The position numbers were made by a program, and so were the translations under genes. DNA of 64,000 bases from Balneola sp. Lineage in GTDB: Bacteria; Bacteroidota; Rhodothermia; Balneolales; Balneolaceae. The notes under the pieces were generated by a model that had not been told where the DNA came from, searched no databases, and saw nothing but the letters and a program-made list of their open reading frames with translations. Location: assembly GCA_965601915.1 (NCBI GenBank), contig OZ271847.1, positions 2,257,178-2,321,177 on the forward strand, read 5' to 3'. Positions 1 through 29,534 of this stretch are shown in pieces (within the stretch, counting starts at the first letter, position 1; every line of letters begins with the position of its first letter).

Positions 1-3000
1 CTTGTTCCAAACCAAAGAGCTTTATTACCTGAATATTGGGCTTACTCTAAAACGGTATTTATTAATACCCCGCCTGTTGCAAGAATTAATAATTCAAAAA
101 ATATTATTTCCCCTTCTGAGACTCTGTTGCTGCGTGGTGACAACTCATACGATATAGAGGGTCGAAGTCTGAGCTACCAATGGTTTGTAAACGGTTCTCC
201 GAGAGGCACAGAATCTACATTCCGATTCTCAAGCACAATTTCGGGACAATACAGAGTTCGATTAAAAGTATCTGATGGAGGAAGCAATCCTCAATGTTCT
301 GTTGACGAACGTGAAATTCTCATCAGGGTAAATACACAGCCTTATGCTGAACTTAATGTTACACCTCTTATCGGAACTGATGAACAGGTTTCTGCTTCCG
401 TTTCTAATCAAACCGACTCTGACAACGATTCTTTGACTTACCGGTGGCAGGGAGCCGGAATAACCGGACCTAACAATGAATCAACGGTAATTCTTAATCA
501 CACTGAACCGGGTGTATATCCTATCACTTTAACTCTGAATGACGGTTCAGGTGCAAGCAACAGTCTATATTCCGTTACAAAGCGTTATGAAGTTAATGCC
601 CCTCCTCAACCTTCCTTTACATTAAGTGAAAAAGCTGCACCGGGCGACAATTTAACACTAGATGGTACTCCTTCATCTGATGCTAATAACAATCCTCTTC
701 AATACAAATGGTTTGTAAATGATAACCTGATCGCTTCTAATTCAGTTACTGATTTCCAGTTTTCAGATCCTGGTACTTATAATGTAAAATTAGTTGTGGA
801 TGATGGGCGTGGTGTTTCGAACTCAATTCAGGAATTGTCAAAAACCATTAGAATAAATACCGCTCCAAACCCTATTATAACTGCTGCTAAAGTTACTTCC
901 AGTTCCAGAGTCGCATTTTCAGCTGAACAAAGTTCCGATTCTGAATCTGCCCTCACTTCTTATAGCTGGGATTTTGGTGATGGCTCTACAGCAACTGGCC
1001 CACGAGTTCAACATACTTACAACAGTACCGGAGAATATCGAGTTACATTAAGAGTGAATGATGGCGAAGGATTATCAAACAGTATTCGTACAACTGAACA
1101 TATTCTTCTCATTAATCAATATCCAACAGCCGATTTCACAGCACCAATTGTTGTTGCTCCGGGACAAGAGTTTACCCTTGACGGGTCTCTTAGTTCTGAT
1201 TCCGATGGTTTGATCACCAGCTATGAATGGTACAACGAAGGCGAATTACTTGGAACAGGGCCTCAACTTACTACTTCACTTCCAAACTCCGGAAACACAA
1301 CTATTTCTCTTCGTGTAAAAGATGATTCAAATTATGAGCTTGCAGAAGGAATTAAAAACAAAAGAATCAGAGTAAATACAACTCCTGTACCCGTCTGGAC
1401 AACAGATTATGATAACGTAGCACCAAATACTGAAATCAGATTTTCTGCAGCTGAATCGTATGATCCTGATGGAAGTATTTCCAGATATATCTGGAGCTTC
1501 AGTGATGGTGTAGAATTAAGAGGACGTGTAATTCAGCGGTTTTTCAGAGAAAGTGGACCTAAATCTTTTACTTTAACAGTAGTTGATAATGATGGATTAA
1601 GTAATTCCAGAGCTTCAATTGATGGCGAGTTAATGGTTAACCACGCTCCTTTGATCATCACAGAGACGCTGATAAGATCTAATGCCTTATCAGTAACGCT
1701 GGACGCTTCCTCAAGTTATGATCTTGATAATAATCCAATTACATTTGAATGGACACTACCAGACGGCACAAAAAGAAATGAATCTTCTTTTACTTGGCAA
1801 GCTACTGAACCCGGGGTTCATATCATTTCTTTAACTGTTGATGATGGTTTAGGTCTTGATAACAGTATTACCACAGAAACAATCAGAGTATTAATCAACC
1901 GCCCTGTAAAAGCTGTTGTTGCATCCCAAATTCAATCGTGTACTGGTCAAACTGTGCTATTTAACAGTTCCAGAAGTTTCGATCCTGACGGCGATCCTTT
2001 CAGCGTAAAATGGGATTTCGGAAACGGAGTAACATCCGACCAGGCTAATCCCTCTTATGTGTACGAAACACCAGGCATCTATGAAGCTCAACTCACATTA
2101 AACGACGGATTTACTGAGCAGGCTTCTGTCGCTAAAATTCCGGTGATCATTGAAGGATCACCGATTGCAAGAATGAATATTTCTGACACAACAATTTGTG
2201 TAAACAACAGCCTTAGATTTGATGGTTCTGCAAGTACGGATCCTTCAGGTGCTCTTCCCTCTTTAAGCTGGGATACAGGTGACGGGCAGACAAAAGCAGG
2301 CTCAGCAATCAATCATGTGTTTACAAGTCCGGGAGTTTACACAGTTACACTTACCGTGGAAGGCTCAGGCTCCGGTCGTTGTAGTAACGTAAGTCAAACA
2401 ACGGCAACAATCACCGTTGTTGAAGGCCCGGAAGCTAATTTTGAGCTTCCTGAATATACAATTCCGGGTGAGACCATCACTCTTAATGGAACTGCATCTC
2501 AGGTAGATGGATCAATCAAATCCGCACGCTGGTTAATAGATGATGAAAATGGACAAGAAGTCGTCGAAGGAATTAATTCAGATTTTACTTTCGAAAAGCC
2601 CGGTGAATATTTCGTTACTCTTGAACTGGAAACGGATTCTGAAACATCCTGCAACACGGTAAGTCTTACAAAGAGTATTAAGGTAAATGCAAAACCTGAA
2701 ATTATCTGGGAACTCCCCTCTTCTATTGCTGCCGGTACCGATTTGAGATTAAATGCATTACAATCCAGAGATAGTGATGGTTTTATTACTTCTTATAAAT
2801 GGTATCTGGATAATGAACTGGTTAGCGAAAATGCTGCAGAGATAATCAAAGCTATTCAGCCTGGAGAGCATGAAGTTCGTCTTGAGATTACAGACAACTC
2901 TTCAGCTTCTAATAACAGTACAGTTCAACGCAAAACATTTGTAGCAAACAGCAAACCTTCACCCAACATCATAGCTCCTGAGCGTGTATTTCTTAACCAA

Positions 3001-3690
3001 CAGGTTTCTTTCAGAAGTAATTCTGAGTTTGATGTCGATGGTGATGCTTTAACGTCGACCTGGGTATTGGATGGAAATGAAATCCCATCACCAACTTTCA
3101 CCGTTACAAAACCAAACGGTCATACCTTGGTGCTGATACAAAATGACGGTAGAGGATTTGCTAATTCCATCGATTCTGCTCGAATTAGTATTATTCCTAA
3201 GTCATTACCTGTAGCAAAACCTGAACTTCCAAAACTGATAGCAGTAGGTGGCGCTCTATCTCTTCCTGACATTAAAATGAATGAACCATGGAGATTTAAA
3301 AACGGAGGATCTTACAGCCTGACCTGGACGGCCAGAAGCGCAGGGTCTCAGCCAATATCACTCGTATATATGAACAATGGTACTGAACTAACTTCACAGA
3401 CTTTTGAAGTTCAGGTTGTTCCAAGATTGCAGTTCTCTGAAACCATTGCAGATAAAACACTCGAATGGAATCCGGCTAACCCTTCTTATATTCTAAACGG
3501 TCCTGCAACTAACCGCGAGACTGGTGATGTACTCTACACATGGAAACGTCAGGGACGAACTATAGGAACAGGCAGACAAATAGGTATTGAACTTGTAAAA
3601 GGTGAAAATAGATTTACACTTCAGGTAACAGATCAGAAGGTCGCAAGGTCTACTCCTGTCACTGTTGATGTTGTGATTATTACCGAATAA
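1..3690 (+). CDS. PKD-repeat surface protein (5' end lies outside the window)
   Basis: Frame 1 is open from base 1 with no stop before the listed TTG at 127, so the gene is cut by the window edge. About a dozen tandem ~85-90 aa units carry PKD-type motifs (WDFGDG..., Y.V.L.V.D..G.SN). Confidence 0.85.
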   Translation, partial: LVPNQRALLPEYWAYSKTVFINTPPVARINNSKNIISPSETLLLRGDNSYDIEGRSLSYQWFVNGSPRGTESTFRFSSTISGQYRVRLKVSDGGSNPQCSVDEREILIRVNTQPYAELNVTPLIGTDEQVSASVSNQTDSDNDSLTYRWQGAGITGPNNESTVILNHTEPGVYPITLTLNDGSGASNSLYSVTKRYEVNAPPQPSFTLSEKAAPGDNLTLDGTPSSDANNNPLQYKWFVNDNLIASNSVTDFQFSDPGTYNVKLVVDDGRGVSNSIQELSKTIRINTAPNPIITAAKVTSSSRVAFSAEQSSDSESALTSYSWDFGDGSTATGPRVQHTYNSTGEYRVTLRVNDGEGLSNSIRTTEHILLINQYPTADFTAPIVVAPGQEFTLDGSLSSDSDGLITSYEWYNEGELLGTGPQLTTSLPNSGNTTISLRVKDDSNYELAEGIKNKRIRVNTTPVPVWTTDYDNVAPNTEIRFSAAESYDPDGSISRYIWSFSDGVELRGRVIQRFFRESGPKSFTLTVVDNDGLSNSRASIDGELMVNHAPLIITETLIRSNALSVTLDASSSYDLDNNPITFEWTLPDGTKRNESSFTWQATEPGVHIISLTVDDGLGLDNSITTETIRVLINRPVKAVVASQIQSCTGQTVLFNSSRSFDPDGDPFSVKWDFGNGVTSDQANPSYVYETPGIYEAQLTLNDGFTEQASVAKIPVIIEGSPIARMNISDTTICVNNSLRFDGSASTDPSGALPSLSWDTGDGQTKAGSAINHVFTSPGVYTVTLTVEGSGSGRCSNVSQTTATITVVEGPEANFELPEYTIPGETITLNGTASQVDGSIKSARWLIDDENGQEVVEGINSDFTFEKPGEYFVTLELETDSETSCNTVSLTKSIKVNAKPEIIWELPSSIAAGTDLRLNALQSRDSDGFITSYKWYLDNELVSENAAEIIKAIQPGEHEVRLEITDNSSASNNSTVQRKTFVANSKPSPNIIAPERVFLNQQVSFRSNSEFDVDGDALTSTWVLDGNEIPSPTFTVTKPNGHTLVLIQNDGRGFANSIDSARISIIPKSLPVAKPELPKLIAVGGALSLPDIKMNEPWRFKNGGSYSLTWTARSAGSQPISLVYMNNGTELTSQTFEVQVVPRLQFSETIADKTLEWNPANPSYILNGPATNRETGDVLYTWKRQGRTIGTGRQIGIELVKGENRFTLQVTDQKVARSTPVTVDVVIITE

Positions 3691-6649: not shown

Positions 6650-6728
6650 TCTAAGTCTTTGATATTAAATTGCTTTTATTCATATTAGCCTTGATATTTT
6701 AAGAATAACATGAATAATACTTACATAT

Positions 6729-6780
6729 GCAATTGGGATAACATGAATAGTGTGCGTGTTATCCCATTGTTGGGGGCAAT
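6729..6780 (+). repeat. Cassette-boundary element: imperfect hairpin plus GTTGGGGGCAATTAAAA core immediately upstream of the Hachiman-like pair
   Basis: CAAT(T)GGGATAAC (6730-6742) pairs with GTTATCCCATTG (6758-6769) with one bulged T. GTTGGGGGCAATTAAAA (6769-6785) recurs as GTTGGCGGTAATTAAAA at 9859-9875. ATAACATGAATA is a direct repeat at 6705-6716 and 6738-6749. Confidence 0.4.
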
Positions 6781-6790
6781 TAAAAAATAA

Positions 6791-7474
6791 ATGAGCACAT
6801 ACAGAGTCATAGACAGAATTCAGATTGAGCCACATATCCTGTTCCTCAGGATTGAGCCAACCGATATTAAGTTAACTCTTGGTGATGTTTTCAAATCATT
6901 GTCCGATATTGCTTGGATAAGTGACTTCGACAAGAAGTATATAAGGGATGCGTTCACAATACGTGCTACTGAAACAATTGATTATATAGCTGATAATATT
7001 ATTGCTGAGACTAATGATGAAATAACTAAGGACTCAGGTGAAATTGTTGTTTCGGAACTAGCAAGATTAGCAATAGTAAACGAAAACAAATACTTAGATA
7101 TACCATTAGCAGAGCTTTTTAAAAGCCAAGCATCAGGAAATGATGGCTTTGACTTTTACTCTAAAAATCTCACTAAAATCATACTTTTTGGTGAGGCTAA
7201 ATTTCTTTCTGATCGCAATGCTTATGGGAAAGCTTTTAATAAAATTGTTGAATTTGTAAGCTTAGAACAAGACTCATCTGATTTACAAGATATCGATAAA
7301 TTTTACTGTGCGGAGTCTTTAGACAATCACTCCAATGGAAAGAAAGGATTTATGGCAGCCTTTTCCAGCAAAAACACAGACACCAATAGAATACTTAATG
7401 GAATAAAAGCGAATACTGACTTTAATGCCCTTAAGGGGTTTGATGAGCTAATCTGTGTTGCAGTCAACGTATGA
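6791..7474 (+). CDS. HamA-like (DUF1837-type) putative PD-(D/E)xK effector of a Hachiman-like defence pair
   Basis: 227 aa with no signal peptide. It carries a D...(x)n...E-A-K arrangement (DGFDFYSKNLTKIILFGEAKF, E135/K137), typical of PD-(D/E)xK nucleases. Its stop overlaps the start of the downstream helicase (ATGA). Size and gene order match HamA-HamB. Confidence 0.5.
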   Translation: MSTYRVIDRIQIEPHILFLRIEPTDIKLTLGDVFKSLSDIAWISDFDKKYIRDAFTIRATETIDYIADNIIAETNDEITKDSGEIVVSELARLAIVNENKYLDIPLAELFKSQASGNDGFDFYSKNLTKIILFGEAKFLSDRNAYGKAFNKIVEFVSLEQDSSDLQDIDKFYCAESLDNHSNGKKGFMAAFSSKNTDTNRILNGIKANTDFNALKGFDELICVAVNV

Positions 7475-9789
7475 ACAATGCAATAAAAAATATCATTGGT
7501 GCCGAGAATATTGGCGATATAGTATCTTTTGTTTTAGACCGAATTTATAAGAATGGGCCCGTGTCAACAACTGATATGGAAATTCTTTCCTATTTAAAGC
7601 TTTATAAACCCGAAGAATTCAATCTTCATCAGGAAAGGGTTTTACACTATATGGGTCTTTTTTATAAAGATGTTGAGCCTCAATCATTAAAAGAAGTTGT
7701 ATTCAGGCAATACAGAAGGCATATTATTGATAATTTTCAACATACATATACACCCGTACAAGCAAGTATAATTAGTGAAATTGAATCAAATAAATGCTTT
7801 AGTTTTTCGGCTCCAACGAGTACAGGAAAGTCTTATGCTTTTATGAATCTTATTCAGGAGAGCACCGATGACATTGTCATTATAGTTCCTTCAAGAGCAC
7901 TCATTAATGAGTATTATCACAAGCTTAATAAATTAATTGATAATAAATCTGTAAACATTTTAACCTTTATAGACAAGATCAACACGAAACATACAGAACG
8001 CAATGTCTTCATAGTTACACCAGAGAGGTGCAGGGAGTTATTTAAGTTTAAAGAGCAATACCAAGTAAATACATTTCTATTTGATGAAGCTCAACTGAGT
8101 AATGAAGACTCAAAACGAGGATTGTATTTTGACAGTATTGTAAGAAGGGCTCAAAAAGCATTTCCTGACTCTAAATTTGTTTTTGCCCATCCTTTTGTAG
8201 AGAATCCTGACTCCCAAATTAAAAAAAATCACTTTGAATTGGATTCATCAAAGTCAATCCGTTTCAAGCAAAAGAATGTTGGACAATTATACCTCTGCTC
8301 AGATGATGATTGGAATTTCTATCACTTCGGAATTGACAAGTCTATAATGGGCAATAGAAGAGAGAAATGTGCCTTTGACCCCATTGAAAGAACAATTAAA
8401 AACGATGGCTCTGTACTTTTCTATGTTTCAAAAAGCAAAATTTACAATAAGGGATTTCTAAATCAATTTGACAGATACATCAACTTATGTTCTGAAATTG
8501 AAGGTGAGAAAATCGATTCCTACATAGAACAGTTAAAAGAATATACAGGTGGAGATACAATAGCGAACAAAAACTATTATTCTCAACTACTTGCTTTATT
8601 AAAGAGAGGCATAGTTATACATCATGGCTCCTTACCTCTTCAAACAAGGTTAATACTTGAGAAATTTACTCAGGACGGTCTATGTAGAATTTGCTTTGCG
8701 ACATCAACCTTGGAACAAGGAGTCAACATGCCTTTTGATATTGTTTTCCTCGACAGATTAGAAAGAAGTAAACCTCTATCAGTAAAGAATCTCATAGGTC
8801 GTGCAGGAAGGTCAACTACTTTAAATGAATTTGATTTTGGCTATGTCATTATTAATGGTCCTTCTAAAATGGCTGCATTCCGAAGTGTTATTGAACAAGA
8901 TGAAATATTAGATGAAGAATCTTCACTAGAAAAGTCTGAGCAAAAAGATGAAGATTACAATGATTTCAAAGAGGCGATATTAAATGATACTTACTCTGAT
9001 GAATTCAACTTAACTGAAAAAGATTTAGAGAAACTAACATCTGAATCTACAGAAGAAGTAATTAAGAAAATTCTTGATACCGTTTTTGACAATAATCAAA
9101 TAGTACCACTAAATAGATTAAATCAAGACCCTAGGAATAGGTTGGAGCTCTACTCCTATTTTCGATTGTTATATTCAATTTATTTAAATCGTTCACTTGG
9201 TGATGGAGAAGGGAATGTATTGGATACTGCAATAAAAATTATGCTTTGGAAAGTTCACGGAAAGACTTTTAAAAACATTTGTTGGTATCGTTACTCACAC
9301 GCAAGCAAGACCAATGAAAGAGCAAGTCTAGAGAAGTATGGAAGAAATACTAATCAAATAACTGCAAACTTTATTACAGGCTACCATCCAATTCCCGATA
9401 AAAATCATAATGTATATAGTCTATTTCCTCCAGGAACAAGAGCAGTAGATGTAGATTATGACCTCATTATGACAGATACCTATGACTTTATTGACAAGCT
9501 AATTAGCTTCAAATTAACGGACGTATTTTATGCATCTTTTATAAAATATTTTCAAAAGGAAAATGATACTCGAGCCGAGAAGCTCGCCAAGTTCATTAAA
9601 TATGGAACGGATAATGAAAGACATATTTGGATGCTCCGATACGGAATGTCATTTGAAGATATTGAAAAATTAGAGCCCCATATCCTCTCTATTAATGCTG
9701 AGGAAATAGTTTTTAAGGAATCGATTTTAGAAGTACCAAAGGAAGAAAGAGAATCAATTGAAAGATTTATTAGAATACAAACAGAATAA
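7471..9789 (+). CDS. SF2 (Ski2/DExH-like) helicase, HamB-like
   Basis: Helicase motifs: Q-like TPVQ, Walker A APTSTGKS (aa 114-121), PSRALINE, motif II DEAQ (nt 8083-8094), HHGSLP...ATSTLEQGVNMP (motif V) and IGRAGR (motif VI). A ~290-aa C-terminal extension has no domain I recognise. Confidence 0.75.
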   Translation: MNNAIKNIIGAENIGDIVSFVLDRIYKNGPVSTTDMEILSYLKLYKPEEFNLHQERVLHYMGLFYKDVEPQSLKEVVFRQYRRHIIDNFQHTYTPVQASIISEIESNKCFSFSAPTSTGKSYAFMNLIQESTDDIVIIVPSRALINEYYHKLNKLIDNKSVNILTFIDKINTKHTERNVFIVTPERCRELFKFKEQYQVNTFLFDEAQLSNEDSKRGLYFDSIVRRAQKAFPDSKFVFAHPFVENPDSQIKKNHFELDSSKSIRFKQKNVGQLYLCSDDDWNFYHFGIDKSIMGNRREKCAFDPIERTIKNDGSVLFYVSKSKIYNKGFLNQFDRYINLCSEIEGEKIDSYIEQLKEYTGGDTIANKNYYSQLLALLKRGIVIHHGSLPLQTRLILEKFTQDGLCRICFATSTLEQGVNMPFDIVFLDRLERSKPLSVKNLIGRAGRSTTLNEFDFGYVIINGPSKMAAFRSVIEQDEILDEESSLEKSEQKDEDYNDFKEAILNDTYSDEFNLTEKDLEKLTSESTEEVIKKILDTVFDNNQIVPLNRLNQDPRNRLELYSYFRLLYSIYLNRSLGDGEGNVLDTAIKIMLWKVHGKTFKNICWYRYSHASKTNERASLEKYGRNTNQITANFITGYHPIPDKNHNVYSLFPPGTRAVDVDYDLIMTDTYDFIDKLISFKLTDVFYASFIKYFQKENDTRAEKLAKFIKYGTDNERHIWMLRYGMSFEDIEKLEPHILSINAEEIVFKESILEVPKEERESIERFIRIQTE

Positions 9790-9793
9790 AAAC

Positions 9794-9865
9794 TGCCCCC
9801 AACAATGTGTATAGTGCATAGCTACCCTGCGGGATAGCTACGACACCATACACGGAACGTTGGCG
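9794..9865 (+). repeat. attC-like imperfect palindrome (about 69 nt) downstream of the helicase
   Basis: Architecture is R''-spacer-L''-loop-L'-spacer-R'. CCCCAAC (9797-9803), AAT, GTGTATAGTG (9807-9816), central hairpin TAGCTACCC/GGG(A)TAGCTA with one extrahelical base, CACCATACAC (9844-9853), GGAAC, GTTGGCG (9859-9865). Confidence 0.5.
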
Positions 9866-9881
9866 GTAATTAAAAGAGACA

Positions 9882-10451
9882 ATGTGCTTACCATTAAAAT
9901 ATATATTAGATAAGATTTTAAAAATAACAGATAAGGATTGGGATATTTTTGAATCTATCCTCGAAACGAAAAAACTCAAAAAGAAAGAATACCTGTTAAA
10001 ACAAGGACAAATCTGTAGAGGAATTTACTTTTTAACGGAAGGAACAATTAGAACTTTTCACATAAATAATGATGGCAAGGAGATAAATACTGCATTCTAT
10101 TTTCAAAATGAATTTCTTCGTGAAATTGAAAGTATGACCAATAATATTCCTTCGCAAAAAAACATCCAAGCAATTGAAAACAGTACAGTTCTATACATTG
10201 ACAAAGCTAAATTGGTAATTCTTTATGAAAAATCTGAATTCTACCAAAAGTTGGGACGAATGATATTGGAAAAGTTAACCATAAGAGAACAAAAATATTC
10301 TTCATTTTTGACAACATATTCGCCTAAAGAAAGGTATTTATACATTCTCGAAAACCGCCCCGAATTTATAGAACGGATTCCCCTTCAATATTTAGCTTCA
10401 TACTTGGGAATAAGCCGAGAGTCTTTAAGTAGAATTCGGAAAAGGGTTTAA
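9882..10451 (+). CDS. Crp/Fnr-family transcriptional regulator
   Basis: 189 aa. The N-terminal part looks like a cNMP-binding beta-roll (GQICRGIYFLTEGTIRTF...DGKEI). The C-terminal part is a winged HTH (LQYLASYLGISRESLSRIRKR). Confidence 0.85.
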   Translation: MCLPLKYILDKILKITDKDWDIFESILETKKLKKKEYLLKQGQICRGIYFLTEGTIRTFHINNDGKEINTAFYFQNEFLREIESMTNNIPSQKNIQAIENSTVLYIDKAKLVILYEKSEFYQKLGRMILEKLTIREQKYSSFLTTYSPKERYLYILENRPEFIERIPLQYLASYLGISRESLSRIRKRV

Positions 10452-10461
10452 TAATTGATTT

Positions 10462-10477
10462 TGTGACTTTCGTCAAA
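10462..10477 (+). promoter_or_regulatory. Candidate CRP-type operator TGTGA-N6-TCAAA
   Basis: TGTGACTTTCGTCAAA lies between the Crp-like gene and the next ORF. It differs at one position from the classical TGTGA-N6-TCACA half-site arrangement. Confidence 0.3.
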
Positions 10478-10532
10478 GGAAGGGGATTGACTTCTCAATA
10501 ATTTTGAGCTTTAATAATTTAACACTCAAAAA

Positions 10533-10970
10533 ATGAGACAATTAATCCTAATGGCTTTTTTAAGCACTATCAGCCTTTCAAACTGTAAGGATCAAAATCA
10601 AAACAATATGAAAAATCAAATTGAAGAAGCAGTAACATCTATTGAAAAAGCTGCTGCAAACAGAGATACAAAACAACTTACGGAGCTCTTACATAAAGAC
10701 TATCGAGTAATAGCAAATCGATTTAAAGGGAGTGAAAATGCTGTAATCATTTCAAAAGAAATCTATATGCAAATGATGAAAAATAAAAAAATTGGTGGCT
10801 CAAGTTATGACATCAAGTTCAACGATATAAAAATTTCAGGACATACAGCAATTGTAGATGTTCTGTATTCATCGGAAACAACTTCAGATATGCATAAATT
10901 CCTTGTCTTAGTTCAAGATGAAAACGATGAATGGAAAGTTGTAAGTGATATTCCAATTGTAGTGGAATAA
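10533..10970 (+). CDS. NTF2-like (SnoaL/DUF4440-type) lipoprotein
   Basis: 145 aa with a signal peptide and lipobox (ISLSNC). The size and alternating pattern fit an NTF2-fold cone (LHKDYRVIANRF..., GHTAIVDVLYS..., EWKVVSD). Confidence 0.55.
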   Translation: MRQLILMAFLSTISLSNCKDQNQNNMKNQIEEAVTSIEKAAANRDTKQLTELLHKDYRVIANRFKGSENAVIISKEIYMQMMKNKKIGGSSYDIKFNDIKISGHTAIVDVLYSSETTSDMHKFLVLVQDENDEWKVVSDIPIVVE

Positions 10971-10988
10971 ATATATAGATGAAAATAG

Positions 10989-11018
10989 CGGTTTAGATTA
11001 TTATCTAAACCGTTTTTT
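10989..11018 (+). terminator. Rho-independent terminator
   Basis: A 10-bp perfect stem CGGTTTAGAT / ATCTAAACCG with a 4-nt loop is followed by TTTTTT. It starts 19 nt after the stop at 10970. Confidence 0.7.
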
Positions 11019-11101
11019 GCATTTAATTAAGTATTTTACGATTCGAAAAGTTAGTACTTAAACACACGCTACTTTTCAAATACAACCGTTGAGCAAAAAT
11101 T

Positions 11102-11932
11102 ATGAAACAAATAATATTAAGTCTAATTCTACTATTAACAGTTGAAATTTCGTACGGACAAGATTTACTCGAAGAAATTAGTGAAACGGGATTTACAATT
11201 GGAGAAACAATAAAAATTAAATCTCAACTACTGAACGAAACAAGAGATTTGAATATCTATCTACCATTGAATTATTCTCAAGACAGCTTGAAAAACTATC
11301 CCGTAATATATTTGCTTGATGGTTCTAGAGATGAGGATTTCATTCATATTTCTGGAATTGTACAATTCGGTTCTTTTTCGTGGGTTAATATGATTCCCGA
11401 ATCAATTGTTGTTGGAATAGCAAATGTAGATAGAAAAAGAGATTTTACTTATCCTTCTCAAAGTGAACTTGATCAAAAAGAGTTTCCTACGTCTGGAAAA
11501 TCTGAAAAATTCATTTCCTTTTTAGAAAAAGAACTTCAGCCCTTTATTGATTCCAAATACAGAACAACGGAAATGAAAACAATTATTGGTCAATCCCTTG
11601 GTGGACTATTAGCAACGGAGATTCTATTCAAAGAACCTGAACTATTTGACAATTATATAATTGTCAGTCCAAGTTTATGGTGGGATGACGAAAAACTGTT
11701 AGACGAAAATCCTAAAACGTATAATTCTAAAAAATCGATTTATATAGCTGGTGGAAAAGAGGGAGAAGTAATGGAACGGACTACGAAGGAGTTGTATGCT
11801 AAATTAAATAAAAATTCAAAACCGAATACAAAATTGTTTTACAAATTTTTGGAAGACAAAACACACGGAGATGCTTTACATATTGCGGTTTATGATGCAT
11901 TTGAGAAACTTTTTGAACAAAAAAAAGAATAA
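11102..11932 (+). CDS. Secreted alpha/beta-hydrolase (putative esterase family)
   Basis: Signal peptide, the YPVIYLLDG motif and the nucleophile elbow GQSLGG, which together mark the esterase-D / enterochelin-esterase-like family. Confidence 0.8.
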   Translation: MKQIILSLILLLTVEISYGQDLLEEISETGFTIGETIKIKSQLLNETRDLNIYLPLNYSQDSLKNYPVIYLLDGSRDEDFIHISGIVQFGSFSWVNMIPESIVVGIANVDRKRDFTYPSQSELDQKEFPTSGKSEKFISFLEKELQPFIDSKYRTTEMKTIIGQSLGGLLATEILFKEPELFDNYIIVSPSLWWDDEKLLDENPKTYNSKKSIYIAGGKEGEVMERTTKELYAKLNKNSKPNTKLFYKFLEDKTHGDALHIAVYDAFEKLFEQKKE

Positions 11933-11939
11933 AAATTGG

Positions 11940-12064
11940 CTACAACAATGGCTATAAGTAATTGCTTGCAGAGGGTTAAACGAACTTGGTTTCCTACTTT
12001 TTCCCTATTTTAGTACTACACCAAAAAACAACCAAAGCAACTACTCATAGCCAGCCCGTTATAG
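11940..12064 (+). repeat. attC-like imperfect palindrome (about 125 nt) downstream of the esterase gene
   Basis: Same architecture as 9794-9865. CTACAAC (11940-11946), AAT, GGCTATAAGTAATTGCTTG (11950-11968), ~64-nt variable loop, CAAAGCAACTACTCATAGCC (12033-12052; 17/19 paired plus one bulge), AGCCC, GTTATAG (12058-12064). Confidence 0.5.
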
Positions 12065-12176
12065 AAGAATTCGCTTCGCTCTTCTTATTCCCAAATTAAA
12101 CATTCAAAGAGGTTTGTAACCTTTCCCGATTTTAAAAGTGACTTTACCATAGTTACTAATATTTAAAAAAAGAGTT

Positions 12177-13637
12177 TTGAAAGTATTTTGTTTTTTAATG
12201 TGTATTTCATTCAGCACAATTTGTTTTGGGCAACAGTTAACACCTGAGCAATATACCCAGATAGATGATTATATTGAACACCTTATAGAACGACAAGGTA
12301 TCCCGGGAGTGTCAATGGCTATTAAAAAGGGAGATCAAATCATCTATAGGAAGAACTTCGGATATGCAAACTTAGAACATCAGGTTCCTGTTACTGATGA
12401 ATCTGTCTTTAGGCTTTATTCTCTCACCAAACCTGTTATTTCTGTTGGTGTGTTTCAATTAATTGAGAGTGGTAAGGTATCATTAGAAGACTTTGCTTCA
12501 GACTATGTTAATGATCTCCCAAAAGAGTGGGAATCAGTACAAATCAAGCATTTGCTTTCTCATTCCTCGGGATTACCTGATATGTCCCCCATTGCAGCAT
12601 TTCAGGATTTATCTGAAGAACAAGCTAAAGAAAAAGTGTTTTCACAAGAGGTAAGATTTAGCCCGGGCAGTAGATATGATTACAATCAAACCGGATTTTG
12701 GTTACTTCAAAAGATCATTGAAAAAGTAACAGGTAAAAGTGTATCTGCTTTTATACTCGATAATCAATTTAAAAAAAGCCAAAACACTTTTTTCTCATCT
12801 GATTCCAGAGATATCATTCGCAACAGAGTTACCCCATACTTTCCATTTACTAAAGGTACTTTGATGATCGATCACTCTTACTTACAGGGTACATACGCAC
12901 ATTCCAAAAATGGACTAAATACAACTGTAGATGATTTCATTGAATGGGATAGCTCTTTAAAACAAGATCTATTCTTAGAAAAAGAAATAAAAGACTTAAT
13001 GTGGGAAGAATATCCGTATACAAATTCTAACAGAACGTTTACTTACGGATGGGATAAAATAATAGTAAACGGTCAAGATTCTTACGGCTTTTCAGGTTCT
13101 TTGTGTACGGCTTATAGAATTTACCCCGACGACGAATTGAGTATCATTTTTCTTTCTAATGGACTTTCAAAATGGTATAACATTGACAATATTATCAATC
13201 ATATAGCCGGATTGATAGATGAGAAGCTAATAATTGCTGAAAATCTTGGTTTTGAATCTGTTCTCAGATCTTCTTTAGAAAACAATTATAAAGCTTTTGT
13301 TGAGGAATATCGTGTAATAAAAGTACACCCGTTACTGGTAAACAATAATTTTGAAACACACCTGAATGATGTGGGATATTTTTTATTAAAAGCATTAAAC
13401 AAACCGTCCAAAGCTATTGAAATTTTTGAGTTCAATACTATCGAACACCCTGATTCCTGGAATACCTATGATAGTCTTGCTGAGGCCTATGAAATAGCTG
13501 GAAATAAGAGCGAAGCAATAACAAATTATGAGAAAGCGATAAAGCTTAATCCTGATCAGGCATATAAACAATCCACTAAATCTAAAATTCAAGAATTAGC
13601 TAAAAAAAATCCACCTTCAGGAAGTCAAAATGACTGA
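12177..13637 (+). CDS. Beta-lactamase-fold serine hydrolase with C-terminal TPR repeats
   Basis: Signal peptide, the SxxK motif (YSLTKPV), a class-C beta-lactamase/DD-peptidase-like body, and a TPR-like C-terminus (WNTYDSLAEAYEIAGNKSEAITNYEKAIKLNPD). Confidence 0.85.
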   Translation: MKVFCFLMCISFSTICFGQQLTPEQYTQIDDYIEHLIERQGIPGVSMAIKKGDQIIYRKNFGYANLEHQVPVTDESVFRLYSLTKPVISVGVFQLIESGKVSLEDFASDYVNDLPKEWESVQIKHLLSHSSGLPDMSPIAAFQDLSEEQAKEKVFSQEVRFSPGSRYDYNQTGFWLLQKIIEKVTGKSVSAFILDNQFKKSQNTFFSSDSRDIIRNRVTPYFPFTKGTLMIDHSYLQGTYAHSKNGLNTTVDDFIEWDSSLKQDLFLEKEIKDLMWEEYPYTNSNRTFTYGWDKIIVNGQDSYGFSGSLCTAYRIYPDDELSIIFLSNGLSKWYNIDNIINHIAGLIDEKLIIAENLGFESVLRSSLENNYKAFVEEYRVIKVHPLLVNNNFETHLNDVGYFLLKALNKPSKAIEIFEFNTIEHPDSWNTYDSLAEAYEIAGNKSEAITNYEKAIKLNPDQAYKQSTKSKIQELAKKNPPSGSQND

Positions 13638-13789
13638 ATGATCTCTCACCTTTTTTAGCCGGTTTGTTCTTAAGAAACTATGTTTCGTTGTTTTTGTAGC
13701 AAAATCTTTTAATGAGTTTCATTTTAAGTTTCAAAATATTTTTGCAAATAAAATTATCTAAACAGATATTCTTTCATCTAAAAAAAAGA

Positions 13790-14584
13790 ATGAAATTCAT
13801 CGCTAAAAAAATTTACAAAACCCTTTTAACCTACGGTTTTGATGCTAAAAAATTTCTTAGATCCATAAATCCAAATCATGATAAATGGTTTTATGACGAT
13901 CTTAATAAATTTAAAAAGCAAAAAGGTTCAGACACCACATTCAAAATGGGTAAAATGTATCCGATTTTGACTGATAAAAGCCAAGAAGGTGGTACAATGA
14001 AAGGGCACTATTTCCATCAGGATTTATATGTAGCCCGTTTAATCAATAATGCGAAACCTGAAAAACACTTGGACATCGGGTCAAGAACGGATGGTTTTGT
14101 TGCTCATGTTGCATCATTCCGTGAAATAGAAATAATTGATATTCGATCTATAACGAGTAAAGTAAAGAATATCTCATTTCGGCAGGCAGATCTTATGCAG
14201 CTTCCCACAGACCTTGTCGAATATTGCGATTCGATTTCTTCCTTACATGCTATCGAACATTTCGGACTCGGCAGATATGGAGATGAAATTGACTATTTCG
14301 GTTATTTAAAAGCCATAAATAATATCACTAAAATGCTAAAACAGAATGGGACTTTTTATTTTTCTGTTCCCATCGGTACTCAAAGGGTAGAATTTAATGC
14401 TCACAGAGTGTTTTCTGTAAAATATCTCCTAGACATCCTTTCAGAGCAATTCGCAATTACATCCTTTTCTTACATAGATGATAACGGAGACTTTTTTGAA
14501 GATTCTGAATTAACTGAGAAGAATGTAAATACAAATTTTGAGTGTGAATACGGCTGTGGAATATTTGTTTGTACAAAAAGATGA
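13790..14584 (+). CDS. SAM-dependent methyltransferase-like protein (DUF268-like)
   Basis: Motif I-like HLDIGSRTDGF, then D-loop IIDIR and RQADLMQLP. The IEHFGLGRYGD motif is, as I recall, characteristic of DUF268-type methyltransferases. I prefer the ATG at 13790 (MKFIAKK) over the listed 13712. Confidence 0.55.
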   Translation: MKFIAKKIYKTLLTYGFDAKKFLRSINPNHDKWFYDDLNKFKKQKGSDTTFKMGKMYPILTDKSQEGGTMKGHYFHQDLYVARLINNAKPEKHLDIGSRTDGFVAHVASFREIEIIDIRSITSKVKNISFRQADLMQLPTDLVEYCDSISSLHAIEHFGLGRYGDEIDYFGYLKAINNITKMLKQNGTFYFSVPIGTQRVEFNAHRVFSVKYLLDILSEQFAITSFSYIDDNGDFFEDSELTEKNVNTNFECEYGCGIFVCTKR

Positions 14585-14596
14585 TTCAGCTAAATC

Positions 14597-15070
14597 TTAC
14601 TTCTCCTTTGCCCCTGCCAACTCATGAATCTTCTTCCATTCACTATCACGAACCGGAGTGATAGAATGTCGGGCTAACCTGAATAACTCCATATCCTGAA
14701 GTTCTCCATCTTCTTTAAGTACTTCCCTACTTACCGGATTCTCAAATTTCTGAGTGAATTTAACATCCACTAACTGCCAGCGTGGGTCTTCTTTAGTGCT
14801 TTTCTCATCGAAGTACTTGGAGTCTTTATCAAATTGAGTAGGATCGGGATAAGGCTCGCTGGCTACTTCCATAGTTCCTACTATCTCAGGTGGAGAAATA
14901 CGAGAATGATAAAAAAGAACTCCGTCCCCTATTTTCATTTCGTCCCGCATATAATTTCGAGCTGCATAGTTTCTGATGCCGTCCCAGGGTTCAACCTGAT
15001 CTCTTTCCAAATCATCTATGCTGTAGGCATCAGGTTCCGATTTCATTAACCAATATCTTCTATTGCTCAT
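14597..15070 (-). CDS. EVE (PUA-like) domain protein
   Basis: 157 aa. YWLMKSEP...YSIDDL...WDGIRNYAARNYMRDEMKIGDGVLFYHS is the canonical EVE/thymocyte-nuclear-protein-1-like N-terminus. Confidence 0.8.
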   Translation of the reverse strand: MSNRRYWLMKSEPDAYSIDDLERDQVEPWDGIRNYAARNYMRDEMKIGDGVLFYHSRISPPEIVGTMEVASEPYPDPTQFDKDSKYFDEKSTKEDPRWQLVDVKFTQKFENPVSREVLKEDGELQDMELFRLARHSITPVRDSEWKKIHELAGAKEK

Positions 15071-17705: not shown

Positions 17706-20700
17706 ATGAAAAACCGGTTATTCCTACCACTCCTTATCATTACATCTTTATTGGTTTCCTCACAGGTCCTCGGACAAGATAAAATATGGACTGGAGCAGT
17801 TGATTCCTCATGGCATGTAGCAGGAAATTGGAATCCTTCAGGTGTTCCTGCCTCCGGTCAAACTGTTGGGTTAAGAGGTAACACTACTCCTTATCCGGTT
17901 ATCACTTCCAATGTTACGGTTCGTTCTGTAACTATAAACGCTTGGTATTCTAATCCGGGAGATGAATTAATCATTCGTAATAACGCTACACTTACGATTA
18001 CAGATGATCTTACAATCAACGGAGCCGGAATCCTGAATATAATTAATGGCCATTTAGAGATGACTGCCACAAGTTCCGGTCAAAATAACCTTAATCTGAA
18101 TTCTGCTGAAACTGTAGTTAACATTACTAACGGAAGTTTTACTGCAGGCACAGCTTCTGAAGATGTGGATATGGAAGTTATTGGGACTTTCAACCTTGGA
18201 AATGGAGACCTGACAGTTTACGGAGATTTTGACGTATCCAACAGTGATACTTTTAATGCGGAAGACGGTACCGTTGAAATAAATGGTAATACAACTATAA
18301 ATGGTACCTACAACGGAAATGATGGAGTTACCACTTTCAATGGTGAAGTTGATATACGTAGTGGCGGAGTATTAAACCTTGATTCAGGGACTATTAATTT
18401 TAATGATCAGACCTATGTAGGTAACAGTGGAACAACTAATTTGGGTTCGGGTACTGTTTTCATAAACGATGATATTAATGTTAGCAGTGGTGGTTATTTC
18501 AACGTTGAGGATGCAGACGTTACCGTTACAGGAAATGCAAGTTTCAGCAGCAATGGTAACATGAGTGTAGATAACGGAAGTATCACTATCGGCGGTAACG
18601 CTTCATTAAGTAGTGGTGGGGTTATAGATTTAAACTCAGGTAGTTTAAATGTTGGAGGTGATGCTTCATTTACGGCTGGAGGAACTGTAAATGCGGGAAA
18701 TGCCGATATTAACCTTCAAGGGGATTTTACAGTAAATAATAATTCCAACTTCAATGCAGATTCAAGTACGGTTACCTTTAGCGGCGATTCCACTCAAACC
18801 GTTAATGCGGGAACAGATGTCACGTTTTACAATGTAGTAGTAGATTCCGGCGCCGTATTAAATACTGATGGAGGATCAGGAAACACCGTTATCATTGAAA
18901 ATAATTTAACTGTAGAAGACGGTGGTGGCGTTGAAGTTGAAGGAGATGATCAGATTGATGTTCAGGGAGAAGTAGAGGGAGATTCAGATGAAATACAAAG
19001 CCCTAACCCCTTTGCAGTAAGTGCTACGGCACCAACACTTACCACGGTTGTGATTACATTCAATAAATCGATGGATGAAACAACATCTGAAAATACAGGA
19101 AACTACAGTATAATCAGAAAAAGTGATTCTTCCCCTCTTTCAGTTTCAAATGCGGTTTTAAATACCGGAGGTAACAGCAGAGAAGTTACATTAACAGTTT
19201 CTACAATAACTGAAGATGTAGAATATGAAATTACCATGAATAATCTGGAAAGTACCGATGGTGGAGAAATTTCTGTAAATCACAAAAAAAGGTTTACAAA
19301 GCTTGGAGTGATTACATTTTACAGCCGGCAGTCAGGAAGCTGGTCTTTAAACAGCACCTGGTCAAGAACCAGTCATAGTGGACCAGCTGCTACATCAAAT
19401 CCGGGAAATACAAATAACGCTGTTATAATAATCGGAGATGGAGATATTGTAACTATAACGAGCTCAACTTCGATCGTAAATCAAACTTCAGTAGAAGTAA
19501 AAGTAAGTTCAGTTTTGCGTGTTGCTTCCGGTGGAACTTTAACTACAGGCTCTAAGAGTATTACCGGTTCCGGTTCTTTTGAAGTAACATCGGGAACTCT
19601 CGAAATTGGTTCGTCAAACGGAATTTCAAGTTCAGGAGCATCCGGAAATATCAGAACTACAACAAGATCCTTCAGCAATTCCGGTTCTTACACATACAAC
19701 GGCTCATCTGCTCAGCTAACCGGCAGTGGATTACCTTCTGATGTTAATCATTTTAAACTGGATAACTCTTTCGGAGTTACTCTGGATGCTAATCTTGAAG
19801 TAAATGGTACACTTTTTCTCACGTCCGGAACTTTAACAATTGAATCCGGAAATAATTTGATTGCCAACACTAAATCAATCGGCTCCGGACAGTTAAGAAT
19901 TAAACAAACTATTTCCGGCTCTAATGGTTGGCGATTGCTCTCTTCCCCAATAGACTCAGATTATGATGATTTTCTGGACGGAATTACAACTCAGGGTTAT
20001 TCAGGTTCTTCTCTTGGAAATGCCCCTTTAGATAGCCTGCAACCAAACGTTATGTATTATGATGAATCATATCCCGGAACTGATAATCAGCGATGGAGAG
20101 CTCCTTCAAATGCTTCTGCTTCATTAACACCAGGTCGTGGTCTTTATACTTATGTTTTCGGAAGTATTGCATCAGACCCAAGATACAATTCTCCACTTCC
20201 GGTTGACTTGTCTGTAGAAGGTCAGGAGCATTCCGGCTCTGTTGATTTTGGGGTAACATATACAACTTCTGCGGATTCCGGATGGAATTTAGTTGGTAAC
20301 CCATACGCAGCAACCATTAATTGGGACGATCCAAGCTGGACCAAAACGAATATAGATAATACCGTTTATGTATGGGACTATACCACCAATCAATACAAAA
20401 CATGGAATGGAACCACAGGAGATCTAACGGACGGTAAAATTTCTCCTTTCCAAGGGTTCTGGATAAAAGCTAATGATACCTCTCCCTCTCTTATTGTTGA
20501 TGAAAATGCTAAATCTACCGGTGGTAATTTTGTAGGTAAGTCAGTTTCAACCAATAAAAAGCAAGGACACCCACATTTCACTATTTCAGTTTCCGATGAT
20601 ATCCAAAAATCTTCCACTCATTTTATGTTTTCTGAGGATGCAAGTTTACTGAAAGATCGGAATGATGCCTTCAGGTTAGTTCCTCCACCCGGAATTAGAA

Positions 20701-21350
20701 CCTACTTGGATATTTCATCAGTATCTGAAGCAGGAAACCGGTTTTCTATAAATAATTTACCCAGAAAATTTGGGATCCCTGTGGAAATACCAATTAACCT
20801 TGAATCATATTCAAATGGTTTTTCAAGAGACAAAGAACTTCATTTTTTATTCGAGAATATCCAAAACATTCCAGCCGGCTGGAATGTTTATCTCGTTGAT
20901 ACTAAAACAGGTTTTGAAACAGATATCCTTAATGAATCTACTTATCTGTTCTCTTTTGAAGGAGTTTTAGGTAAAGAAACTCCGAATCGGAAGGGAAAAA
21001 GTCCAAAGATCACTACAAAAGCCGCTCCCGATAAGCAAAGATTTCATTTAAGAATTGAGCCCGGATCAGATGCTTTTGATCTTCCTGATGAGTTTAAACT
21101 TGAGCAAAACTTTCCAAACCCATTCAATCCAAGTACAAAAATCAGATTTAATCTTCCGGTAGAGTCTCAGGTAACAGTAGAAATTTTTAACATTTTAGGG
21201 CAAAAAGTAACCACTTTGGTTTCTGAAAGATTAAGTTCAGGCATCCATACTTATGACTGGAATGCAAATGGTTATGCCAGTGGCGTATATTTGATAAGAC
21301 TTGTTACTTCTAATGAAGTTTTTATAAAAAAAATGACCCTCCTTAAGTAG
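17706..21350 (+). CDS. Large T9SS-sorted surface protein (beta-helical repeats, Ig-like domain, conserved C-terminal module)
   Basis: Signal peptide, then ~20-aa G/N/T-rich beta-helix-like repeats (aa ~130-380) and an SbsA-like Ig domain (PFAVSATAPTLTTVVITFNKSMDE). The GWRLLSSP...PFQGFWIKA module is shared with the next two genes. It ends in a T9SS C-terminal domain (NFPNPFNPSTKI...SGVYLIRL...LLK). Confidence 0.85.
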   Translation: MKNRLFLPLLIITSLLVSSQVLGQDKIWTGAVDSSWHVAGNWNPSGVPASGQTVGLRGNTTPYPVITSNVTVRSVTINAWYSNPGDELIIRNNATLTITDDLTINGAGILNIINGHLEMTATSSGQNNLNLNSAETVVNITNGSFTAGTASEDVDMEVIGTFNLGNGDLTVYGDFDVSNSDTFNAEDGTVEINGNTTINGTYNGNDGVTTFNGEVDIRSGGVLNLDSGTINFNDQTYVGNSGTTNLGSGTVFINDDINVSSGGYFNVEDADVTVTGNASFSSNGNMSVDNGSITIGGNASLSSGGVIDLNSGSLNVGGDASFTAGGTVNAGNADINLQGDFTVNNNSNFNADSSTVTFSGDSTQTVNAGTDVTFYNVVVDSGAVLNTDGGSGNTVIIENNLTVEDGGGVEVEGDDQIDVQGEVEGDSDEIQSPNPFAVSATAPTLTTVVITFNKSMDETTSENTGNYSIIRKSDSSPLSVSNAVLNTGGNSREVTLTVSTITEDVEYEITMNNLESTDGGEISVNHKKRFTKLGVITFYSRQSGSWSLNSTWSRTSHSGPAATSNPGNTNNAVIIIGDGDIVTITSSTSIVNQTSVEVKVSSVLRVASGGTLTTGSKSITGSGSFEVTSGTLEIGSSNGISSSGASGNIRTTTRSFSNSGSYTYNGSSAQLTGSGLPSDVNHFKLDNSFGVTLDANLEVNGTLFLTSGTLTIESGNNLIANTKSIGSGQLRIKQTISGSNGWRLLSSPIDSDYDDFLDGITTQGYSGSSLGNAPLDSLQPNVMYYDESYPGTDNQRWRAPSNASASLTPGRGLYTYVFGSIASDPRYNSPLPVDLSVEGQEHSGSVDFGVTYTTSADSGWNLVGNPYAATINWDDPSWTKTNIDNTVYVWDYTTNQYKTWNGTTGDLTDGKISPFQGFWIKANDTSPSLIVDENAKSTGGNFVGKSVSTNKKQGHPHFTISVSDDIQKSSTHFMFSEDASLLKDRNDAFRLVPPPGIRTYLDISSVSEAGNRFSINNLPRKFGIPVEIPINLESYSNGFSRDKELHFLFENIQNIPAGWNVYLVDTKTGFETDILNESTYLFSFEGVLGKETPNRKGKSPKITTKAAPDKQRFHLRIEPGSDAFDLPDEFKLEQNFPNPFNPSTKIRFNLPVESQVTVEIFNILGQKVTTLVSERLSSGIHTYDWNANGYASGVYLIRLVTSNEVFIKKMTLLK

Positions 21351-29442: not shown

Positions 29443-29534
29443 TTGAATACATCTCTTTTAATGTGGAAGTTAGAATTGGTTAATGAAGCCAAATAAACTT
29501 GGTTAATTGCTATCTTTCTTTATATATCAAGAAG

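Follow-up and report, generated by a model that had tools for sequence, protein, structure and literature searches.

Hachiman is a widespread defence system whose mechanism has been characterised (PMC12278908, PMC11914072, PMC13064477). In the systems studied so far the nuclease HamA is inactive alone, its activity requiring the residues of an E-x-K motif as well as ATP binding by the helicase HamB (PMC11914072, PMC13064477), and the two proteins are reported to co-evolve (PMC13064477). Here we describe a two-gene locus from the chromosome of Balneola sp., located in a stretch of 64,000 nucleotides (nt) (assembly GCA_965601915.1, contig OZ271847.1, positions 2,257,178 to 2,321,177), which we refer to at its full length as the window. 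A gene for a small nuclease-like protein of 227 amino acids (aa) overlaps a downstream gene for a 772-aa helicase. We conclude that the pair is probably a two-gene Hachiman-type (HamAB) anti-phage system, one that belongs to a clade both compact and strongly diverged and that reached the Balneola chromosome by horizontal transfer. The system is of a known kind and not a new one, with a small nuclease so diverged that standard models miss it.

Several described systems can be set beside this locus. Type I-A Hachiman, defined in the scheme of Cui et al. by a HamA that consists of DUF1837 alone and has kept its active site intact, is exemplified by two E. coli systems, those of ECOR31 (PDB 8VX9; PMC12278908) and DEC14B (PMC11914072). 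The window pair shares with these the two-gene order hamA-hamB, a stand-alone nuclease, a Ski2-like HamB of helicase superfamily 2 (SF2), and the lack of extra effector domains. Its D-ExK active site, with E135/K137, corresponds to E138/K140 in ECOR31 and E150/K152 in DEC14B. It differs from type I-A in the length of its HamA (227 aa versus about 270-345), in that this protein falls below detection by the PF08878, PADLOC HamA and NCBIfam models and, compared with ECOR31, in having a HamB of 772 aa versus the 1174-residue 8vx9_B chain.

AbpAB, or type I-B (E. coli K-12 YfjL/YfjK; PDB 8ZUE; PMC11914072, PMC10732053), is also a nuclease-helicase pair with a 4-nt gene overlap, and AbpA carries a C-terminal HamA (PF08878) domain. 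However, AbpA is a 538-aa protein with an N-terminal Cap4 nuclease and a catalytically inactive DUF1837 (PMC11914072), whereas the 227-aa window protein has no Cap4_nuclease match in Pfam and keeps its active-site residues. Type II Hachiman (HamABC) has a third gene, hamC (DUF3223), unlike the window pair, for which no conserved third gene was found across 52 loci. Since it has neither a Cap4 domain nor hamC, the pair is neither type I-B nor type II, and its architecture is type I-A-like. Finally, the trypsin-HamAB-MBL system (9WH1; bioRxiv 2025.09.03.673762) has two further components, namely a trypsin-like protease, which is either fused to HamA or associated with it, and an effector of the metallo-beta-lactamase (MBL) fold. 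The HamB of that system is the best solved match of the window helicase, whereas neither the protease nor the MBL effector occurs in the window or in the 52 related loci.

The helicase partner

The 772-aa protein carries a full set of SF2 motifs: a Q-like YTPVQ at residue 93, motif I APTSTGKS at 114-121 (Walker A K120), Ia PSRAL at 140, II DEAQ at 205-208, V TSTLEQGVN at 411 and VI GRAGR at 443-447. A preliminary description of the locus, drawn up from the DNA letters alone, had noted that all SF2 motifs are present in this DExH/DEAQ helicase, had given correct residue numbers (K120 here, E135/K137 in the small protein), and had suggested that the two genes were HamA and HamB. For the helicase this suggestion was borne out. 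PADLOC models of HamB matched it strongly (HamB1 PDLC00190, E = 3.4e-56; PDLC00176, E = 4.3e-54) and made up 17 of the 25 PADLOC matches listed, while Pfam returned generic DEAD, Helicase_C and ResIII domains only. The best match among solved structures was 9wh1_B (E = 8.4e-23, residues 50-447), chain B of 9WH1 being the HamB of the trypsin-HamAB complex (bioRxiv 2025.09.03.673762). ECOR31 HamB (8vx9_B) came next, at E = 1.8e-10 and over one motif block only.

The closest HamB relatives in annotated records were found in plasmid loci, with tblastn E-values down to 7e-26. These canonical Hachiman loci (L065-L071) come from Rhodococcus, Arthrobacter, Haloplanus, Natrinema, Paracoccus and Bartonella, that is, from Actinomycetota, haloarchaea and Alphaproteobacteria. 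We built a profile of the clade HamB from 52 sequences (the window's own and those of 51 related loci) and set against it eight plasmid-encoded HamBs, six of which have an upstream gene annotated as DUF1837 or Hachiman HamA. The two profiles aligned in hhalign with a probability of 100% and E = 5.9e-53 over 727 columns (7-777 versus 6-870). Because this homology runs the full length of the protein, the C-terminal region, which the preliminary description had called uncharacterised, is the ordinary C-terminal region of a HamB. The clade HamBs are about 70-120 residues shorter than those of the plasmids, mainly at the N-terminus; compared with the plasmid proteins (841-890 aa), the window HamB is without about 65 N-terminal and some C-terminal residues. 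These comparisons identify the helicase as HamB along its entire length.

A core of this kind could also belong to a Hel308/Ski2/Lhr-like helicase that has a housekeeping function in DNA repair or on RNA, is accompanied by an accessory nuclease and plays no role in immunity, since the core is like those of Ski2, Hel308 and Pol-theta helicases, and no defence genes neighbour the pair in the window. However, the NCBIfam housekeeping equivalogs (Hel308, Lhr-type and others) gave the helicase scores of 13-52 bits, far under their cut-offs of 785-1496. Hel308 reached 45.9 bits versus a cut-off of 1200 and the Lhr-type PRK09751 12.7 versus 1496, with the Hel308/Ski2 equivalogs together at about 46-52 bits versus about 890-1200. 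The distribution of the pair, presented below, also speaks against a housekeeping role, and we regard such a role as highly improbable.

The small nuclease-like protein

A word-indexed search of 5.8 billion proteins yielded 410 relatives of the small protein, nearly all of about 227 aa and mostly from Bacteroidota, and when 1.84 billion cluster representatives were searched exhaustively with a profile, only 318 matched at E ≤ 1e-3. Across 99 aligned family members, which share 22-52% identity with the window protein, no substitution occurs at D121, E135, K137 or F191, and G83, E84 and S88 are nearly invariant. The D...EAK nuclease-like motif pointed out in the preliminary description is therefore real. 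The predicted catalytic residues are E84, D121, E135 and K137, an E...D...ExK signature comparable to E138/K140 of ECOR31 HamA (PMC12278908) and to the G-D...E...D...E-x-K pattern of S. thermophilus HamA (PMC13064477).

An AlphaFold2 (AF2) model of the protein (predicted local distance difference test score, pLDDT, 86.7; predicted template modelling score, pTM, 0.85) has a restriction-endonuclease-like alpha-beta-beta-beta-alpha-beta core. In this model E84 opens the helix 83-99, D121 lies just before the strand 122-125, and E135 and K137 lie within the strand 131-137. The weak Foldseek matches of the model are mostly PD-(D/E)xK nucleases, namely ACE1/Cas4-family proteins, EndoMS/NucS, SfsA, Card1, EcoO109I and Hjc.

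A link to HamA emerged from the divergent members of the family. When the 99 members were scanned with Pfam, PF08878 (HamA) was the sole recurrent family, matching 10 of them with a best E-value of 1.1e-5; the next family matched four, at E = 0.027. In the corresponding PADLOC scan the seven most recurrent families were all HamA models, and ten different HamA hidden Markov models (HMMs) were matched, with best E-values of 1.6e-5 to 3.6e-5. The NCBIfam scan of the same 99 members gave no HamA match. For a more direct comparison we assembled canonical HamAs from the annotated plasmid Hachiman loci and from the results of a profile search, whose 120 listed matches all carried PF08878. An HMM of 31 de-redundified canonical HamAs was scored on 233 family members and on 932 reversed or shuffled decoys: 97 of the members exceeded 5 bits (maximum 17.9; window protein 9.1), as opposed to two of the decoys (maximum 5.9).

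Profile-profile comparison and the predicted fold point the same way. Between the family and canonical HamA profiles, hhalign produced a recurring co-linear alignment of up to about 200 columns (P = 2.5e-4 to 5.9e-3), in which G83-E84 is aligned with G-E(106), G-F-D121 with G-S-D(140) and G-E135-A-K137 with G-E(158)-S-K(160). The plasmid HamAs, at 299-345 aa, have the invariants G-E, G-x-D-G and G-E-x-K in the same order and with similar spacing; those from RefSeq are annotated as DUF1837, and the relatives listed from the profile search are all PF08878-positive. In the AF2 model of a PF08878-positive HamA (P0290; pLDDT 84.8) the elements follow one another as they do in the window protein. 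A beta-hairpin and three helices come first, then the G-E helix and three strands bearing the D and E-x-K residues, and after these three more helices, one strand, a pair of helices and a last strand. Two further comparisons contributed little: the C-terminal domain of E. coli AbpA, used as a search seed, retrieved no more than 16 close fragments, too few to build a helpful profile, and a single-sequence hhalign versus AbpA was uninformative. Because the Pfam and PADLOC scans, the decoy-calibrated HMM, hhalign and the order of elements in the AF2 models converge, homology to HamA is supported at a remote level, the signal being real but weak. We read the small protein as a genuine but outlying clade of HamA.

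Against this stand the following results. In none of Pfam, PADLOC-DB v2.0.0 and NCBIfam 20.0 did the window protein itself match a HamA or DUF1837 model at E ≤ 1, so that the Hachiman assignment, clear for the helicase at E = 3.4e-56, found no counterpart in curated models for the 227-aa protein, and PADLOC v2 would not call this system. Among PDB sequences, phmmer and family profiles returned no HamA and only chance-level matches (cytochrome c, TIP30). The hhalign probabilities between the family and canonical HamA were only 6-43%, and the family is compact, with a profile that stays apart from the larger DUF1837 family. Foldseek searches of the PDB with the small-protein model gave a best E-value of 0.3 and no HamA chain among the best 50, whereas in a control run the model of a canonical HamA reached 8zue_A at E = 1.1e-5, although 8vx9_A was not among its best 50. 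Moreover, complex formation, trigger and nuclease activity are ascribed to this clade by analogy. Two other searches were also negative, with seven close relatives of the small protein lacking a HamA match in Pfam and a tblastn search of plasmids with the small protein returning no match.

These results could be explained if a genuine HamB had acquired an unrelated PD-(D/E)xK nuclease in place of HamA, making the pair an undescribed system that merely resembles Hachiman. The missing curated match, the failure to reach a PDB HamA by sequence profile or by Foldseek when the canonical control does so, and the low HH-suite probabilities would all fit such an effector replacement. Yet HamA is the only family to recur among the divergent members in two independent HMM libraries, the separation from decoys is clear, and the alignment is co-linear over both the N-terminal region and the catalytic core, with the same order of secondary structure. 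In addition, co-evolution of HamA with HamB has been reported (PMC13064477), and the window HamB is itself diverged and shortened. We therefore think effector replacement unlikely. The preliminary description had held that a small protein without a DUF1837 match would make the pair an undescribed one; the match is indeed missing, but that conclusion fails, as the family is remotely homologous to HamA, in keeping with the Hachiman reading that the same description had put forward.

Relatives that share 56-78% identity already go by the names 'AbpA/HamA C-terminal domain' or 'DUF1837' in some sources. UniRef, for instance, labels five of them (P0007, P0015, P0065, P0073 and P0115) 'AbpA/HamA C-terminal domain-containing' or 'DUF1837 domain-containing', whereas the NCBI label is hypothetical and a Pfam-A hmmscan found no PF08878 in them at E ≤ 10. 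The UniRef names seem to stem from a more permissive annotation route.

If the window pair works as its E. coli and Streptococcus counterparts do (PMC12278908, PMC11914072, PMC13064477), HamA and HamB would form a heterodimer in which HamB surveys DNA. On intact double-stranded DNA, HamB would restrain HamA. Phage-induced DNA damage or free DNA ends would elicit the ATP-dependent helicase activity of HamB and with it the activation of HamA, which would then degrade DNA non-specifically and abort the infection (PMC12278908).

Pairing and distribution of the two genes

We searched 185,579 species-representative genomes and obtained 58 loci with the small protein. In 52 of them a helicase open reading frame (ORF) of more than 700 aa (mostly 761-787 aa) lies immediately downstream, mostly with a 4-nt overlap; the six exceptions are contig ends or truncated genes. 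In the window the junction reads ...AACGT-ATGA-ACAATG, with the hamB ATG at 7471-7473 and the upstream TGA at 7472-7474, so that the preliminary description was exact as to both ORFs, their coordinates and the ATGA overlap at 7471-7474. The host phyla are Bacteroidota and Bacillota, with loci in Flavobacteriia, Bacteroidia, Sphingobacteriia, Cytophagia, Streptococcus, Lachnospiraceae, Oscillospiraceae and Acholeplasmataceae. Of seven IMG/VR viral contigs encoding a relative of the small protein, six have the helicase too. The hamA-like gene and hamB form a self-contained, overlapping unit of patchy, accessory occurrence.

Among the 52 loci there is no conserved third gene, the largest cluster of neighbours comprising six of them. 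In these six loci, four from Streptococcus (L032, L034, L036, L037) and two from Bacteroidales (L045, L046), type I restriction-modification (R-M) genes, hsdM (N6_Mtase) and hsdS (Methylase_S), lie directly upstream and end 7-29 nt before the pair, which is thus embedded in an R-M locus. This adjacency, the occurrence on viral contigs, the restriction to 58 patchily spread loci in two phyla, and the absence of the pair from a conserved site in Balneola relatives, where the window DNA is low in GC, are what argue against the housekeeping helicase considered above. The patchy spread and the absence from Balneola relatives also contradict the prospect, raised in the preliminary description as a possible refutation, of a housekeeping helicase found at a conserved position in all relatives.

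Decay does occur in this family, the helicase partner being truncated in five other loci (L026, L033, L047, L048, L061), and the window cassette might by extension be an inactive relic of a transferred element. However, both window ORFs are intact and full length and have kept the catalytic and SF2 motifs as well as the 4-nt coupling, which leaves a relic with hardly any likelihood, slightly below that of a housekeeping role.

Two kinds of additional gene were seen beside the pair in other genomes. In three Flavobacterium genomes (L018, at 9249-10004, L020 and L031) an RlaP-family (PF10127) nucleotidyltransferase-like gene of ~250 aa overlaps the start of the hamA-like gene by 4 nt, L002/L003 also being grouped with these loci; this overlap suggests an occasional three-gene variant of the clade. 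Separately, three loci from Flavobacterium/Chryseobacterium (L024, at 13000-13539, L025 and L029) have a conserved ORF of ~179 aa, unmatched in Pfam, that begins 13-16 nt downstream of hamB.

For a Hachiman-type assignment, one further instance of the system is unsurprising, and the value of the locus is practical, lying in better detection. A clade with a bona fide HamB and a HamA unseen by PADLOC-DB v2, the Pfam cut-off and NCBIfam is present in 58 species-level genomes and on some viral contigs. Because HamA goes undetected in the whole clade, surveys of defence systems in Bacteroidota and in gut or oral Bacillota are likely to count too few of these systems, and adding the clade to HamA models would close this gap. 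Owing to its small size, the clade could also serve as a minimal HamAB for structural work. There is a slim chance that it is a functionally distinct Hachiman lineage, with another HamA-HamB interface or trigger, and that recombination, marked by the 17-nt inverted repeat and the 75-nt hairpin described below, placed it in the Balneola sp. genome as a discrete cassette. The clade comprises HamAs of ~227 aa and HamBs of ~770 aa, with 318 representatives (counted at 50% identity) mainly from Bacteroidota and Bacillota.

Genomic setting and bracketing repeat

The pair lies in a low-GC insertion of ~8 kilobases (kb) (Table 1). The GC fraction falls from ~0.41 upstream to 0.30-0.34 between ~6500 and ~14000, and in the insertion as a whole it is ~0.30-0.34 versus ~0.40-0.45 around it. 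The insertion is flanked by a conserved trkH and a conserved EVE-domain gene (14597-15070), the latter adjoining dTDP-rhamnose (rml) genes. Its extent was inferred from two Balneola loci (L082 and L084), since in these only a single small ORF separates trkH from a homologue of the EVE-domain gene. The window TrkH is ~90% identical to that of Balneola genomes, and the block upstream (a repeat-rich 1187-aa protein, trkA and trkH) is kept in most tabulated Balneolaceae loci. In contrast, the hamAB pair was absent from the trkH site in all 80 Balneolaceae loci compared by synteny, and the search of species-representative genomes found it in no Balneola reference genome. The GC drop and this absence from relatives agree with the AT-rich accessory segment noted in the preliminary description. 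As a separate observation, what follows trkH differs among Balneola relatives, and the site looks like a variable integration spot. No tRNA gene is present in the 64-kb window; no integrase was seen near the insertion, no systematic recombinase search of the window having been made.

Table 1 Features of the Balneola sp. window around the hamAB pair
Feature	Coordinates	Strand	Description and basis
hamA-like gene	6791-7474	+	227 aa; predicted PD-(D/E)xK nuclease, divergent HamA/DUF1837 relative; ORF listing
hamB gene	7471-9789	+	772 aa; SF2 Ski2-like helicase; PADLOC HamB, profile comparison, solved-structure matches
Low-GC accessory insertion	6650-14590		Composition, synteny with 80 Balneolaceae loci, Pfam on cargo
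Best sigma-70-like promoter match upstream of the operon	6691-6718	+	TTGATA-16-AATAAT; 10/12 consensus only
Left arm of 17-nt inverted repeat	6765-6781	-	CATTGTTGGGGGCAATT; ends 10 nt before the hamA-like ATG
Right arm of inverted repeat	9791-9807	+	Starts just past the hamB stop; within the 75-nt imperfect hairpin
75-nt imperfect hairpin	9794-9868	+	-34 kcal/mol, z = -5.0; no T-run

The direct neighbours of hamAB in the window are trkH and a gene for a cyclic nucleotide monophosphate (cNMP)-binding regulator. According to Pfam, the cargo besides hamAB consists of this regulator, a DUF4440 protein, an esterase, a beta-lactamase/tetratricopeptide repeat (TPR) protein and a DUF268 methyltransferase. 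We considered whether the ~8-kb insertion is a defence island and rejected this, the remaining cargo being metabolic or regulatory by Pfam. The insertion is an accessory patch carrying mixed cargo, without the character of a defence island.

The two genes are bracketed exactly by a 17-nt inverted repeat whose arms are complementary at 16 of 17 positions and include a perfect 14-mer, TGCCCCCAACAATG (z = 4.1 versus shuffles). The left arm adjoins a short hairpin, GGGATAAC...GTTATCCC. The preliminary description had placed the pair in a segment bounded by repeats, which holds for the two genes and not for the ~8-kb low-GC block as a whole, around which no bounding repeats were found. A longer motif of ~22 nt, AAYTGSCYMCAACAATG..ATA, occurs three times in the insertion, at 6765-6785 (-), 9789-9868 (+) and 11932-11956 (+); the first two copies make up the bracketing inverted repeat, the second also opening the 75-nt hairpin, and the third copy, after the esterase gene, is degenerate and without a hairpin.

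The repeat is specific to this genome. As a property of the cassette family it was rejected, none with z > 3 being found in about 50 other loci, and a multi-copy host or repetitive extragenic palindromic (REP) element is unsupported, with no copies in 155 fetched loci. Only six scattered matches, in unrelated taxa, were found in the 185,579 genomes, with no enrichment in any one reference genome, and no Rfam family corresponds to the repeat or hairpin. An integron attC site was also considered, as the outer arms CCCCAAC...GTTGGCG loosely resemble R''/R' boxes. It was set aside on four grounds: the inverted orientation of the upstream copy, the lack of a hairpin at the third one, the absence of tRNA genes from the window and the lack of any Rfam match. 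The motif is a candidate insertion scar, operator or recombination site.

In the promoter scan that gave the match listed in Table 1, promoter-like sites were no commoner than in shuffles, and promoters of the Bacteroidota type were outside the scan. Elsewhere in the window there are four very large ORFs, at 127-3690 (1187 aa), 17706-21350 (1214 aa), 21445-29442 (2665 aa) and 29499-37055 (2518 aa). The first of these appears by eye to be repeat-rich and PKD-like, and it is conserved 5' of trkA in Balneolaceae.

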